A stretch of 5,033 bases of DNA from a virus (lineage: Duplodnaviria > Heunggongvirae > Uroviricota > Caudoviricetes), in IMG/VR virus record IMGVR_UViG_2706794662_000015; one strand, 5' to 3'. Numbering within the stretch: the stretch's first letter is position 1; each line of letters begins with the position of its first letter. The position numbers and the translations under genes are program-made. Below the pieces are notes generated by a model, which saw only the letters and a program-made list of their open reading frames with translations, was not told where the DNA came from and made no database searches. Below are positions 1,568-4,930 of this stretch, in pieces.

Positions 1568-1817
1568 NNNNNNNNNNNNNNNNNNNNNNNNNNNNNNNNN
1601 NNNNNNNNNNNNNNNNNNNNNNNNNNNNNNNNNNNNNNNNNNNNNNNNNNNNNNNNNNNNNNNNNNNNNNNNNNNNNNNNNNNNNNNNNNNNNNNNNNNN
1701 NNNNNNNNNNNNNNNNNNNNNNNNNNNNNNNNNNNNNNNNNNNNNNNNNNNNNNNNNNNNNNNNNNNNNNNNNNNNNNNNNNNNNNNNNNNNNNNNNNNN
1801 NNNNNNNNNNNNNNNNN
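1568..1817. other. Assembly/scaffold gap (250 N)
   Basis: Uninterrupted run of n from 1568 to 1817. The length is not a multiple of 3, so ORFs read across it are artefactual. Confidence 0.97.
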
Positions 1818-2022
1818 CATGTCGCTGACCGTCGTTCTGCGCCCGGTAATTCGCAAACGAACACTTCCGGTGCAACGGCTGGATGCCGGAGCGGTTCAGG
1901 ATTTTTTCCACCCGCAACTGACGATTCAGGCGGTTGATCTCCTCGCAACGTTTCTGGCCTTCAGCAAGTTGCCACTCGCGCCACTCCGCAACCGTTCTGA
2001 ATGGGGCGGTTACATGTGGTGG
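1818..2022. repeat. Right copy of the approx 205-bp diverged direct duplication flanking the gap
   Basis: See 1363..1567. The same codons (…PPHVTAPFRTVAEWREWQLAEGQKR…) are encoded on both sides with a few substitutions (S/C, QV/RA, Y/H). Confidence 0.85.
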
Positions 2023-2079: not shown

Positions 2080-3228
2080 TTACCCCCTGAAGCCTGGCGG
2101 GATCGCACTGTCCGGCAACGAGACGGTGTTAACCTGTCGGAGCAACGTCTCAGGCCGAACACCTTTCGGCGCGAACAGACCCTGGTATTCATTGGCGATG
2201 CTGTGTCGAATCACCTGCTCAGGTGTAAAACCCTGCTGACGGAATTTTTCCAGTTCCCGTATCGCCCCGTTAGCGCCCTGCTCCGTTCGAATCGGTTTTC
2301 GCAATGCCTGCCTGAACTGGACCCACTCATGCCAGAGTGTTTCTGGCAACCAGTCGGGCAGATCAACTGACAACGGGTCAAATTTTTTCTGGCGAACAGC
2401 CCCACCGATAACCAGAATTCCCTGCTCGGTGTGCCTTGCGATATCACTGCGCCGCAAGACACATATCCCGGTTTCAACAGCACCGATTTTGAGCAGTGAT
2501 TTCTGTCGCGGAGAATTTCGGTCAAGCTCGCTCCCACACCGGACACCGTTCCTGTCAGTCACGACGATATCAATCCGCCCTCCGCAACCGTCACCACGCT
2601 CTGGCACCGGATACTCACGACAGACATCCAGGCCAGCAGCCTGCAACGCAACCACCGCAGAATTACAAAATTCCGCTGCAGTACCGCCAGATAATCTCCC
2701 CTCAAGCACTCCAGCCACAAAATCCCGAAACTCCCTTCCGGAAGGGAAGGGTTTGGGATGGGTTAGATCTGTTTTTAGATCTTTATCTGTATCTTTATTA
2801 GTTGCCTTTGTGTTGGCATCATGTTCGAACATCACTCCAACATCTGTTTGAACACCTGTTAAATTTCTCTCTTGTTTTGTTTGAACATCTGCTTCCTTTC
2901 TGCTTCTTCTGGCCTGAACAGATGCTTTTCCTGCGGCTGATTTTTTGGTTAATTTTTCTCTGACAGATGCCAGATCTTCCTCAATCCGAAGATGCATCCA
3001 TTCGTCGCCGTTATCACAAAAAAACTCCCGCAAGGATGGTTCAACATCAACCCATCGCTCGTTAGTCAGACGGGCAATTTTTGCCAACCTGTTTTTGGGT
3101 ATTGGCTTTCCTGTTTGCCAGTAATTGAACATCAGCAACAAATACGCGCCGTGCTCCTCTGCTGACAAATGCATGGTGTCAGCCAGGTAATCAGCTATGT
3201 ACAGTTGCATGTATGGTAATGCGGCCAT
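2080..3228 (-). CDS. Phage replication initiator/replisome organiser: DUF1376-like N-terminal domain, charged linker encoding ori-like repeats, central domain of unknown function, DnaT-like C-terminal domain (YdaU/lambda-O functional analogue)
   Basis: ORF track 2080..3279 (399 aa). I place the start at ATG 3228 (MAALPYMQLYIADYLADT...), which fits the usual N-terminus of this family; the upstream 17 codons are hydrophobic and lack a convincing RBS. The C-terminus ...NTVSLPDSAIPPGFRG closely resembles the C-terminus of E. coli primosomal protein DnaT as I recall it. It sits directly upstream of, and near-coupled to, the DnaC-like gene. Confidence 0.75.
   Translation of the reverse strand: MAALPYMQLYIADYLADTMHLSAEEHGAYLLLMFNYWQTGKPIPKNRLAKIARLTNERWVDVEPSLREFFCDNGDEWMHLRIEEDLASVREKLTKKSAAGKASVQARRSRKEADVQTKQERNLTGVQTDVGVMFEHDANTKATNKDTDKDLKTDLTHPKPFPSGREFRDFVAGVLEGRLSGGTAAEFCNSAVVALQAAGLDVCREYPVPERGDGCGGRIDIVVTDRNGVRCGSELDRNSPRQKSLLKIGAVETGICVLRRSDIARHTEQGILVIGGAVRQKKFDPLSVDLPDWLPETLWHEWVQFRQALRKPIRTEQGANGAIRELEKFRQQGFTPEQVIRHSIANEYQGLFAPKGVRPETLLRQVNTVSLPDSAIPPGFRG
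2761..2900. repeat. Putative replication origin inside the initiator gene: AT-rich tract with two AGATCT and three 6-bp ATCTKT repeats (2764..2796), then three copies of palindromic TGTTYGAACAYC (2821..2833, 2846..2857, 2878..2889)
   Basis: Read directly from the sequence. The segment is visibly lower in GC than the flanking coding sequence and encodes a charged, low-complexity linker (residues about 128-177). In lambdoid phages the origin iterons lie inside the O gene. Confidence 0.5.
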
Positions 3229-3291
3229 AATTGCCCCGTATGATGCTGCCCGGTTGCTTAGAATAAGCACAAACAGCATGGAAACTTTTGC

Positions 3292-3714
3292 TTAATGAAC
3301 AATGACAGAATCGTCGGAAGACCCGCCGCCGCTGAAATGCGCTTTCCGGTAAACGGCCTGGACTGCATCATCATGCGCATCAATTGCCGTACTCAACGCT
3401 TCCTGCGCCGCCAGTAATGCACGGCGTTCCAGGGTATCGAAGATGCAGAGTCGGTGACGCAGCTCGCGCGGAAGAATTGCCAGAACCGCAGGGATCAGTT
3501 TCTGAATTTTTTCCCTTTGCGCTTTCGTTTCACCTTTCAACCAACGGTGATAGATATTCTGCTGATTGTTCCAGTCCTTGCCTGGTACAAGGGGCAATTC
3601 GCCGCCCCCCTGGCGCAGATATTCTTCAGTAATTGCGTTAGCGACCCACGCCTGCCCTTTTTCGGCTGCCAGGGCTAACAACACTGATTCGATGTGCTCA
3701 TGCCTGATTTTCAT
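3292..3714 (-). CDS. ydaT: cII-like / YdaT-like prophage protein (140 aa)
   Basis: Intact ORF whose ATG (3714..3712) overlaps the upstream stop in an ATGA junction (3711..3714), indicating translational coupling. Position (after the cro-like gene, before the replication genes) and length (140 aa) match Rac YdaT. The symbol rests on synteny and length, not on a verified alignment. Confidence 0.6.
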   Translation of the reverse strand: MKIRHEHIESVLLALAAEKGQAWVANAITEEYLRQGGGELPLVPGKDWNNQQNIYHRWLKGETKAQREKIQKLIPAVLAILPRELRHRLCIFDTLERRALLAAQEALSTAIDAHDDAVQAVYRKAHFSGGGSSDDSVIVH

Positions 3715-3953
3715 GAATCAACCGCTCCTATGCTGTTTTCGCTATGCTTACCGTCTGGGGGGAATACATCGTCAAGTCCACAATGAGCGCCAAGCCGATT
3801 AAGGGTAGAAACAATTTTTCTGCACTCCTCTAGTCCAGGGGTACGAAAATTTGCTTCGTAATTTGCCAGTCGGCTTTGTATCCACCCTAACTGAACAGCA
3901 AGTTGTCTTTGAGACAGCCCAAGCTGTTTTCGATATGTTGAAATTTTGTTCAT
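3711..3953 (-). CDS. Cro-like HTH_XRE DNA-binding protein (80 aa), YdaS-like
   Basis: ATG at 3953 with GGAGG RBS 7 nt upstream. HTH signature QLGLSQRQLAVQLGWIQSRLANYEA. Divergently transcribed from the repressor gene. Confidence 0.75.
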   Translation of the reverse strand: MNKISTYRKQLGLSQRQLAVQLGWIQSRLANYEANFRTPGLEECRKIVSTLNRLGAHCGLDDVFPPDGKHSENSIGAVDS

Positions 3954-4049
3954 TGAAAACCTCCGATGACAATTTTAAACACACCTTGTGTTATATAGCC
4001 AAGCTGTTTTGTGTTTTATGTAAATCACGATTCGTGATACAAGGATGCA
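3954..4049. promoter_or_regulatory. Divergent promoter/operator region between the cro-like and cI-like genes. Candidate operators: AACACA-cct-TGTGTT (3978..3992) and ATCACGA-t-TCGTGAT (4024..4038). Candidate leftward promoter: -35 at 3997..4002 and -10 at 3974..3979 on the minus strand, 17-bp spacer containing the first palindrome
   Basis: 96-bp AT-rich spacer between divergent HTH genes containing two perfect inverted repeats. The promoter hexamers are weak matches, so their assignment is tentative. Confidence 0.45.
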
Positions 4050-4469
4050 ATGGAAAAAGAAAACGAAAAAATTGCCGCTAGTAGGCTCAATGACAAAATT
4101 GCAATGCGTCTTAAAGAGCGCAGGCAGAAGCTTGGTTTATCTCAAGGAAAACTTGCTGAAATCTGCGGATGGACGCAATCGCGTATAGGTAACTATGAGG
4201 CGGGCAGCAGAAATGTTGGAGTACATGACGCTGTCGTATTGGGAAAGGCACTTGGCATATCTCCTCCTGAGCTCCTCTTTGGAGAACAGGAATCTTCTGA
4301 ATTGTGGTTAAATGAATCCCAACGAAAACTTCTTGAGTTGTTTAACCAGCTACCGGGCTCAGAACAACAACGAATGATTGAGCTATTTGAAGTCCGGCTA
4401 AAAGAAATCGATGAGTATGTAGAAAAATATTTGAGAGGCAGGATTAAAGATAATCCCCCACCGGAATAA
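4050..4469 (+). CDS. cI-like prophage repressor, HTH_XRE family (139 aa), RacR/DicA-like; no LexA-type (S24) autocleavage domain
   Basis: ATG at 4050 with AAGGA RBS (4041..4045). HTH QKLGLSQGKLAEICGWTQSRIGNYEAG is closely related to the cro-like protein's HTH. The C-terminal half is helical-looking (LLELFNQLPGSEQQRMIELFEVRLKEIDEYVEKYL) and lacks the Ala-Gly/Ser/Lys pattern of S24 peptidases. Confidence 0.75.
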   Translation: MEKENEKIAASRLNDKIAMRLKERRQKLGLSQGKLAEICGWTQSRIGNYEAGSRNVGVHDAVVLGKALGISPPELLFGEQESSELWLNESQRKLLELFNQLPGSEQQRMIELFEVRLKEIDEYVEKYLRGRIKDNPPPE

Positions 4470-4499
4470 TGATCTTGCTATCACAGTAATATGCCAATC

Positions 4500-4523
4500 A
4501 GCCCGCTATCAGCGGGCTTTTTT
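4500..4523 (+). terminator. Rho-independent terminator after the repressor gene
   Basis: Stem AGCCCGCT (4500..4507), loop ATC, stem AGCGGGCT (4511..4518), then a T-run (4519..4523), 31 nt after the repressor stop. Confidence 0.7.
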
Positions 4524-4565
4524 GTAGCATCATCATATGACACTCACCATAAAACACATTGCGTG

Positions 4566-4594
4566 TTGACACAAGAAAACAAATTGTGTTTAAT
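4566..4594 (+). promoter_or_regulatory. Near-consensus sigma70 promoter (pL-like, rightward): TTGACA (4566..4571), 17-bp spacer, TTTAAT (4589..4594)
   Basis: Perfect -35, 17-bp spacing, 5/6 match at -10. Inverted repeat AACAC-N5-GTGTT (4553..4567) overlaps the -35 and shares half-sites with the 3978..3992 palindrome. Confidence 0.45.
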
Positions 4595-4774
4595 AAGCAT
4601 ATCCAAACAACGCCCCACCAGAGAACGGCAGGACAATACCTCGAGTTATCCAGTCACTGAACAGGGCTAAGTAGCCAGCCTGAGGCATACGAACATGACG
4701 GCAGTTGTTGATTGATACAAAGCGCAGTAGATAAAACGTTCCGCCACCCGGCGTTAAGGGGAAATGGGGTCAAC

Positions 4775-4930
4775 ATGAATACTATCGATCTTGGCAACAA
4801 CGAATCTCTGGTATGTGGCGTGTTTCCCAATCAAGACGGCACATTCACCGCCATGACGTATACCAAAAGCAAAACGTTTAAAACCGAAGCTGGCGCACGT
4901 CGTTGGTTGGGAAGACATTCAGGTGAGTAA
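4775..4930 (+). CDS. Small hypothetical prophage protein (51 aa; MNTIDLGNNESLVCGVFPNQDGTFTAMTYTKSKTFKTEAGARRWLGRHSGE), possibly a YdaF-like small protein
   Basis: ORF track 4712..4930 uses a TTG start; I prefer ATG 4775 with a GGGG motif 5 nt upstream. Position (beyond the repressor, same strand) and length match the small ydaF-type genes next to racR in Rac, but I do not recognise the sequence with certainty. Confidence 0.45.
   Translation: MNTIDLGNNESLVCGVFPNQDGTFTAMTYTKSKTFKTEAGARRWLGRHSGE

Follow-up and report, generated by a model that had tools for sequence, protein, structure and literature searches.

A Cro-like gene of non-YdaS type and ydaT as the probable lysis/lysogeny control pair of a Rac-like Escherichia coli prophage

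Overview of the locus

We conclude, with a probability of about 0.8, that the two genes in positions 3292-3953 of the window (the whole 5,033-nucleotide stretch of DNA analysed here) control lysis and lysogeny in a Rac-like E. coli prophage as a pair of the ordinary kind, made up of a Cro that is not of the YdaS type and of YdaT. The early "rightward" operon of this lambdoid prophage very probably begins with this interval and runs on the minus strand of the window (Table 1). Apart from a proposal about promoter geometry that is described below, the pair belongs to a known system as one of its ordinary members, and the module is of a well-understood kind, in a common mosaic arrangement; some 150 genomes already have it with generic annotation.

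At 99.7% identity, the region 3200-4600 matches an E. coli chromosome on which the genes are annotated 'toxin YdaT family protein', 'helix-turn-helix ...' and 'YdaU family protein', and on which genes for DUF977, DnaC-like ATPase, Ea22-like, Rha, RecE and Gam proteins lie nearby; within the window itself, Pfam and PHROGs matches identify YdaU/DUF1376 (replication), DUF977 and DUF1391. The genetic context is that of a complete λ-like immunity and replication region. An earlier note on this DNA had described the pair as cro-like and cII-like genes directly below a divergent operator region, and the ORF positions and homologies, including those of a divergent repressor, bear this out; 96 bp separate the start of the cro-like gene from the divergent 139-aa HTH gene. 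The single Rfam match in the window, a sub-threshold Trp_leader hit on the repressor terminator, is taken as chance.

Table 1. Features of the control region and their positions in the window
Feature	Position	Strand	Basis
cro-like gene, 80 aa	3711..3953	-	ORF list (ATG start); XRE/HTH_3 family, VT1-Sakai/mEpX1 Cro type
ydaT, 140 aa	3292..3714	-	ORF list (ATG start); Pfam, PHROG, K-12 YdaT alignment
YdaT-box TTGATT-CATGAA-AATCAG	3704..3721	-	pattern scan; footprints known in K-12, CP-933P
Shine-Dalgarno AGGAG of ydaT	3725..3729	-	sequence reading; 10 nt before ATG, inside cro-like coding sequence
predicted -10 hexamer TATGCT of putative YdaT-activated PRE-like promoter	3743..3748	+	positional conservation of TAnnnT; inference
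Shine-Dalgarno GGAGG of cro-like gene	3960-3964	-	sequence
divergent control region, OR-like	3954..4049	.	two exact 15-bp palindromes
prophage repressor, 139 aa	4050..4469	+	XRE HTH; weak sub-cutoff DicA-like match
intrinsic terminator after repressor gene	4500..4518	+	computed
OL/PL-like region	4553..4594	+	operator copies overlapping TTGACA-17-TTTAAT
ydaU-like replication gene (DUF1376), next in same rightward operon	2080..3279	-	Pfam, PHROG
DUF1391 (ydaF-like) gene	4775-4930		Pfam; PL-like element reads towards it

The ydaT gene

The downstream gene of the pair, which the earlier note had called cII-like and of the YdaT type, is a genuine ydaT. Its product is identical to K-12 YdaT at 136 of 140 positions (97%), matches Pfam PF06254 (YdaT_toxin) with 44.4 bits against a cutoff of 21 and the PHROG phrog_163 'CII-like transcriptional activator' with an E value of 1e-36, and aligns over its full length with the solved YdaT structures 3c4r and 8bt1. 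In K-12 YdaT, H56 and R57 are needed for DNA binding and L107 and A110 (in alpha-6) for tetramerisation (PMC11879457), and the translated sequence of the window gene keeps all of these as well as W58. The YdaT family consists of tetrameric, POU-like HTH proteins that are CII-analogue transcription activators, and YdaT is the CII analogue of Rac. PF06254 is the sole Pfam match of the window protein, which does not match the λ CII family model (Phage_CII), and YdaT is a functional analogue of λ CII and not a relative in sequence.

The partner of ydaT, and the question of toxicity

The 80-aa protein encoded upstream matches the Pfam families HTH_3, HTH_19 and HTH_31, and it has homologues with the annotation Cro in VT1-Sakai, mEpX1, mEp213, Mannheimia phages and others; over residues 1-66 it is 62% identical to VT1-Sakai Cro (E = 9e-32). 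Across the HTH, the protein and the divergent repressor are 45% identical and have the recognition-helix region in common, which is consistent with a Cro and a repressor that recognise common operators. By these similarities it is most probably a Cro analogue of the XRE/HTH_3 type (VT1-Sakai/mEpX1 family), with operator binding predicted. Like the window protein, the Cro proteins of Stx1 phage VT1-Sakai and of mEpX1 are encoded in a position divergent from the repressor, but they are 72 aa long, are paired with a 212-aa CI (the window repressor has 139 aa), and are followed by nutR/tR1 and then, about 115 nt downstream of cro, by a λ-type cII, whereas in the window YdaT follows with no spacer. 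The same Cro and repressor family is also present in a Salmonella relative, there beside a very divergent 164-aa YdaT-family gene with a 14-nt overlap; that locus has no recognisable YdaT-box and was excluded from the box analysis described below.

The earlier note had taken the 80-aa protein for a possible variant of YdaS (its figure of 98 aa for K-12 YdaS is confirmed by the sequence). Such a strict YdaS/YdaT pair, in which the protein would be a truncated or variant YdaS with the toxicity reported for YdaS, would be in keeping with its place in the ydaS position upstream of a 97%-identical ydaT, with the fact that both are small HTH proteins, and with a marginal HTH_3 match of K-12 YdaS itself (25.3 bits), which points to a common fold clan. 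However, BLASTP gives no alignment of the 80-aa protein with K-12 YdaS at E<=100; there is no match to PF15943 (YdaS) even at E 0.01, a model against which K-12 YdaS scores 107.7 bits; the DNA upstream of the YdaT-box is unrelated to K-12; and the nearest relatives are the VT1-Sakai and mEpX1 Cro proteins, which adjoin λ-type cII genes. Membership in the YdaS family is refuted at the family level by BLASTP, Pfam and DNA alignment, so that we consider this reading extremely improbable, and the earlier family call for the Cro partner was wrong. Scarcely more probable is a type II toxin-antitoxin module with the HTH protein as antitoxin and with co-expression ensured by the overlap of the genes. 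The Pfam names 'YdaS_toxin' and 'YdaT_toxin', like the NCBI names, invite this interpretation, YdaT expression kills K-12 cells (PMC11879457), and the 80-aa protein has weak matches to the HipB, MqsA and Y4mF antitoxin HTH models of NCBIfam, but these reach only 20-21 bits against cutoffs of 62-79, and no NCBIfam match of the protein to an antitoxin family is above threshold. Moreover, YdaT binds DNA as a tetramer and has defined operators, and its toxicity is reportedly tied to regulatory effects that include activation of rcsA; the CP-933P YdaT is not toxic (Jurenas 2021, PMC8630535); YdaS/YdaT-type proteins have been argued and shown to be regulators rather than a genuine toxin-antitoxin pair (Jobling 2018, PMC5917428; Jurenas 2021, PMC8630535); and the context in the window is a complete λ-like immunity and replication region.

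When K-12 YdaT is expressed, cells filament, their membranes are damaged and CFU fall 10^4-fold (PMC11879457), and the same toxicity is expected of the window YdaT because of its 97% identity and intact DNA-binding residues. Of the earlier proposal of a host-toxic module, the YdaT part is thus supported by the K-12 work, and the part that concerns YdaS fails because YdaS is absent and its toxicity is not transferable; by analogy with K-12, toxicity upon derepression should here come from YdaT and not from YdaS. The cassette is present in about 150 of the 5426 complete genomes of E. coli, and its derepression should expose cells to the same YdaT that kills K-12 on expression. For annotation, the label 'toxin YdaT' and a guessed 'YdaS' would both mislead in the case of a Cro/CII-type switch.

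Repressor and operators

The 139-aa repressor, which contains no Peptidase_S24 domain, is unrelated in sequence to RacR. Between its gene and the cro-like gene are two exact 15-bp palindromes, AACACACCTTGTGTT (3978-3992) and ATCACGATTCGTGAT (4024-4038), both of which fit the operator pattern AWCACR-N3-YGTGWT exactly, and the same pattern recurs beyond the repressor terminator at 4553-4567 and, with one mismatch, at 4576-4590, where the copies overlap TTGACA (4566-4571)-17-TTTAAT. Operator copies on both sides of the repressor mirror the OR and OL/PL layout of λ. The Cro-like protein presumably competes with the repressor for the two intergenic operators, their occupancy by both proteins being predicted from the sequence. 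Neither a consensus scan nor inspection by eye allowed confident placement of PR and PRM in the intergenic region; a consensus sigma-70 scan of 3250-4800 returned no plus-strand promoter and two weak minus-strand matches, the same as in shuffled sequences. The lack of a plus-strand consensus promoter is expected for an activator-dependent promoter, yet lends it no positive support.

The YdaT-box and the mosaic boundary with Rac

A YdaT-box, TTGATTCATGAAAATCAG, with a single mismatch to TTGATTN6AATCAA (AATCAG instead of AATCAA) is the only site this close to that pattern in the window, and the ATG of ydaT and the TGA of cro both sit in its 6-nt spacer, of which the ATGA forms the centre. Binding of this box by YdaT is predicted. 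In K-12, Wons et al. 2025 found the corresponding sequence, ATGATTCATGAAAATCAA, to be footprinted by YdaT over the ydaT start codon, and the box is required there for YdaT-dependent transcription in the repressor direction, which is activated up to 29-fold (PMC11879457); similarly, Prolic-Kalinsek et al. 2023 footprinted TTGATT-N6-AATCAA at the ydaS/ydaT border of CP-933P (PMC9986795). By analogy with these published homologues, the window YdaT would bind its box and activate transcription in the reverse direction. The first base of the window box is T and its last is G, while the Rac K-12 box has A at both ends. Of possible extra YdaT-box-like sites in the intergenic region, such as K-12 has, the best (4011-4028) has three mismatches, and the total of four such sites is at the level of chance (3.5 expected).

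In an alignment with the DNA of K-12 Rac, an identity of about 95% sets in at TGATTCATGAAAATCA, some 7 nt ahead of the ydaT ATG, and the window is unrelated upstream of this point. The 5' end of ydaT is matched in 1564 of 5426 complete E. coli genomes, and 153 of the 1564 also carry this cro and intergenic region; partial genome matches stop at window positions 3720-3722, and in some genomes with divergent YdaT genes the common stretch is only the 32 nt from 3691 to 3722. The mosaic joint coincides with the outer edge of the 18-bp YdaT-box that straddles the ydaT start codon. The cro and repressor are unrelated to those of Rac and lie beside a ydaT that is 97% identical, so the locus is a heteroimmune mosaic in which the immunity cassette (repressor, operators and cro) has been swapped relative to Rac K-12 and the ydaT-ydaU-ydaV block is Rac-like. 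It shows clearly how lambdoid phages exchange modules, the joint falling here precisely on a regulatory site.

The racR-ydaS-ydaT region of K-12 Rac (Wons et al. 2025, PMC11879457; see also Krishnamurthi 2017 and Bindal 2017) otherwise has much in common with the window: a YdaT-box over the ATG of ydaT, ydaU, ydaV and DUF977 genes downstream, a DUF1391 (ydaF-like) gene beyond the repressor, and a λ-like layout. In addition to the unrelated immunity genes and operators, it differs in that its two genes are 22 nt apart and those of the window overlap by 4 nt, and in its intergenic YdaT operators and the promoter PracR4, which have no recognisable counterpart in the window.

The four-nucleotide overlap

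The plus strand reads TCAT at 3711-3714, and the overlap of the two genes in an ATGA, as described earlier, is correct: the 80-aa ORF, with its TGA stop, and the 140-aa ORF, with its ATG, have four nucleotides in common. Overlaps of 4 nt are common in bacterial operons and have no statistical rarity by themselves. We compared the upstream genes of 93 loci with a Rac-type or related YdaT; their products belong to at least four families (YdaS_toxin, P22_Cro, HTH_17-like, and the HTH_3 type of the window). The 80-aa cro type with its ATGA overlap and the K-12 YdaS type with its 22-nt gap each account for 24 of the 93 loci, an HTH_17-like type also has an ATGA overlap with ydaT, upstream types of the YdaS family overlap by 17 or 1 nt or stop just before the ydaT ATG, and one type has no upstream ORF at all. 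Where upstream ORFs are present, the ends of all types fall between 22 nt before the ydaT ATG (K-12 YdaS) and 17 nt after it, most of them within -10 to +17. The fixed sequence of the ydaT start region, TTGATTCATGAAAATCAGGCATGAG, has TGA in all three frames (TTGATT, ATGAAA, GCATGAG), and because the box and ydaT start hold a TGA in each frame, an upstream ORF of any frame stops near the ydaT ATG. The frame of an incoming cro such as that of the window would stop at the TGA of ATGAAA, and the ATGA overlap is probably a by-product of the box and the ydaT start, and no special trait of this pair. The last 14 or so codons of the cro-like gene overlap the predicted PRE -10, the Shine-Dalgarno sequence of ydaT and the left half of the YdaT-box.

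A conserved -10-like element next to the YdaT-box

We assembled 147 YdaT-linked loci (from IMG/VR and GTDB, K-12, the window, and YdaT-verified matches to the box pattern) and clustered the 60 nt beyond the box, which gave 16 sequence types. On the strand that reads in the repressor direction, 15 of the 16 clusters have a TAnnnT that begins exactly 21 or 22 nt beyond the box (the 16th has CAAAAT), and G is present at -14 in 10 of the 16. The background of TAnnnT elsewhere in the same sequences is 1.5% per position, a control set of chance box matches without a YdaT ORF has it at those offsets in 5 of 60 clusters, and the maximum in 2000 shuffles was 6 of 16 clusters. Eleven of the 16 clusters encode distant YdaS-family relatives, so that the samples are not fully independent, though their flanking bases have diverged. 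Only T1, A2 and T6 of the hexamer are conserved across clusters, and the flanks vary. T-12, A-11 and T-7 are the hallmark positions of the sigma-70 -10 element, and an activator centred at -41.5 or -42.5 is in the classical class-II position. The pattern suggests that YdaT loci generally have a PRE-like promoter close to the box, whose centre would be at -41.5 or -42.5. Two other roles for the conserved hexamer were considered and rejected: a YdaT half-site, from whose TGATT core the invariant T1, A2 and T6 differ, and an in-frame stop on the coding strand, since the cro ORFs read through the hexamer.

The window has TATGCT as this hexamer, within the final codons of cro and oriented antisense to cro, in the direction of the repressor gene. 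The start of the putative promoter is predicted to be near 3755, with the box centre at -42.5. After derepression, one transcript would yield both Cro and YdaT, and YdaT would bind its box and, acting in a class-II-like manner from -42.5, would switch on this weak promoter. The resulting transcript would be antisense to cro and sense for the repressor, and so the functional equivalent of that from λ PRE.

The locus paaR2-ydaS-ydaT of prophage CP-933P (E. coli O157:H7) offers a close parallel to this arrangement and independent support for the box-proximal element. There too a cro-type gene ends in ATGA inside a box, TTGATT-CATGAA-AATCAA, and YdaT (PDB 8bt1) activates a PRE-like promoter in a short fragment that adjoins the box: the YdaT-activated PRE933P reporter, whose extent we mapped from the published primers onto a CP-933P-type locus, spans only 84 nt past the box and includes a -10-like hexamer, TACAAT, at offset 22. 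CP-933P differs from the window in that its YdaT is only about 30% identical to that of the window, its Cro partner is a 100-aa YdaS-family protein where the window has an HTH_3 type, and its repressor PaaR2 is followed by the ParE2/PaaA2 toxin-antitoxin pair.

Two other explanations bear on this junction, one for the overlap and one for the promoter. The earlier note called the genes translationally coupled, and coupling of the cro-like gene and ydaT is plausible. That the ATGA is a selected coupling device that fixes the Cro:YdaT ratio, a view compatible with our main explanation, is possible but doubtful. The 4-nt overlap without a promoter in between, the bicistronic ydaS-ydaT mRNA shown in K-12, the overlaps of 1, 4 or 17 nt in most upstream types, and the ATGA in CP-933P all agree with it, but ydaT keeps its own AGGAG or purine-rich GGAG at the Shine-Dalgarno position in every upstream type, the K-12 genes are 22 nt apart with an identical ydaT, the RNA fold of the junction (3670-3790, minus strand) does not exceed shuffled sequences in stability (z = +1.09) and does not sequester the ydaT start, and the type of overlap is set solely by the frame that enters the fixed box sequence. 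As for the promoter, YdaT might instead act at a distance on one deeper in the cro-like gene or intergenic region, TAnnnT not being the activated promoter. Wons et al. 2025 read their K-12 reporter data in this way and credit PracR4, about 190 bp from the box, and the YdaT tetramer is able to bridge two DNA sites. However, PracR4 was assigned by BProm and EcoCyc predictions, and we found no start-site mapping in the text of Wons et al. (nor, in the publications consulted on these phages, a mapped transcription start for the YdaT-dependent promoter). Furthermore, the K-12 reporter retains the box-proximal region including TATGAT, 84 nt past the box are enough for activation in CP-933P, the window cro is unrelated to ydaS and has no plus-strand consensus promoter, and the T-A-T positions are fixed in distance while their flanks vary. 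We consider action at a distance unlikely.

We lean somewhat towards the view that the 18-bp YdaT-box and the -10 at a fixed 21-22 nt from it form a portable PRE cassette at the module boundary. If this is true, any immunity cassette that becomes joined to ydaT, be it one with a YdaS, P22-Cro, HTH_17-like or VT1-Sakai type of Cro, keeps a YdaT-driven repressor; the YdaT-dependent promoter of Rac K-12 is the box-proximal TATGAT (box centre -41.5) and not PracR4 190 bp away; and a promoter on the other strand imposes constraints on the final codons of each cro that partners ydaT. The conserved -10-like hexamer implies a testable, class-II-like YdaT geometry, which would be a refinement of the published model with its activation at a distance. 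This one modest new inference is the most useful outcome of the comparison, and it suggests that a simpler mechanism of the PRE type may hold throughout the YdaT family.

The logic of such a switch is the same as that of cro-cII-PRE in λ, where an activator made from the PR transcript switches on a leftward promoter, antisense to cro, from which the repressor mRNA is made. λ and the window show no similarity in sequence here, and the two activators differ in their sites: λ CII binds direct repeats that flank the -35, whereas YdaT binds an inverted repeat centred near -42.

Repressor, operator region and Cro relatives

The divergently transcribed repressor of this Rac-like prophage is only 139 aa long and has no Peptidase_S24 domain, so it is unlikely to undergo RecA-stimulated self-cleavage. 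At related loci a Rha/Phage_pRha-ASH gene is found close by, which may offer an antirepressor route to induction. The features discussed here are collected in the table.

Features of the window discussed in the text
Feature	Position	Strand	Remark
Repressor gene	4050-4469	+	
AATCAG half-site	3684-3689	-	20 nt downstream of right half of YdaT-box, in ydaT codons 9-11
CTATGCT, first copy	3728-3734	+	at offset 8 from the box
CTATGCT, second copy	3742-3748	+	contains predicted -10
YdaU-like gene	2080-3279	-	399 aa (K-12 counterpart, 285 aa)
N run	1568-1817		250 N, in ydaV-like gene
Flanks of N run	1363-1567, 1818-2022		about 205 nt each

A second AATCAG half-site, also kept in K-12, follows the YdaT-box (TTGATT-N6-AATCAA, which spans the ydaT start codon). 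The 95-nt footprint in CP-933P includes weaker flanking sites (PMC9986795), and this half-site may be the equivalent of those sites. Between the box and the predicted PRE-like promoter the heptamer CTATGCT is repeated, its two copies lying 14 nt apart; the first has no counterpart among the other sequence types found upstream of ydaT.

The nearest solved structure to the cro-like protein (3711-3953) is PDB 28tn_A, with an E value of 8e-15 over residues 1-69; this 82-residue chain is named "lambda repressor-like protein". Two Salmonella enterica loci (L006 and L007) encode a Cro that is 75% identical to that of the window and share its repressor family. Their cro adjoins, with an overlap of 14 nt, a very divergent YdaT-family gene of 164 aa; no TTGATT-N6-AATCAA box was recognised at these two loci, and this divergent subfamily may use a different operator.

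YdaU- and ydaV-like genes

The YdaU-like protein is 95% identical to K-12 YdaU over residues 1-171 and 89% identical over residues 298-399; between these, about 126 extra residues (172-297) stand where the K-12 protein has a 12-residue linker. The extra segment matches phrog_1347, a PHROG of unknown function. The annotation of the closest genome splits the ydaU-like gene into two pseudogene fragments. The neighbouring DnaC/IstB-like (ydaV-like) gene is broken by a run of N, whose flanks are roughly 93% identical and represent the same gene segment twice. Run and doubled flanks together look like a scaffold join of two related prophage copies, an artefact rather than real sequence.

Database records of doubtful label

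The locus L003 lies in a 47.5-kb complete phage record, PP818812.1, labelled as an Actinobacillus pleuropneumoniae phage ("Actinobacillus phage vB_Apl-pPE4"). It encodes a cro-like protein 100% identical to the window's, together with ydaT, a DicA-like repressor, Kil and exodeoxyribonuclease VIII, every one of the E. coli Rac type; the assignment to an Actinobacillus host seems doubtful. Should the record prove reliable, this cassette is present in an intact phage. Two GTDB MAGs, "Candidatus Nanosynbacter" and "Collinsella" (L014 and L022), have enterobacterial ydaT loci on short contigs, one of them encoding a YdaT 97% identical to the window's; these loci are probably binning contamination.
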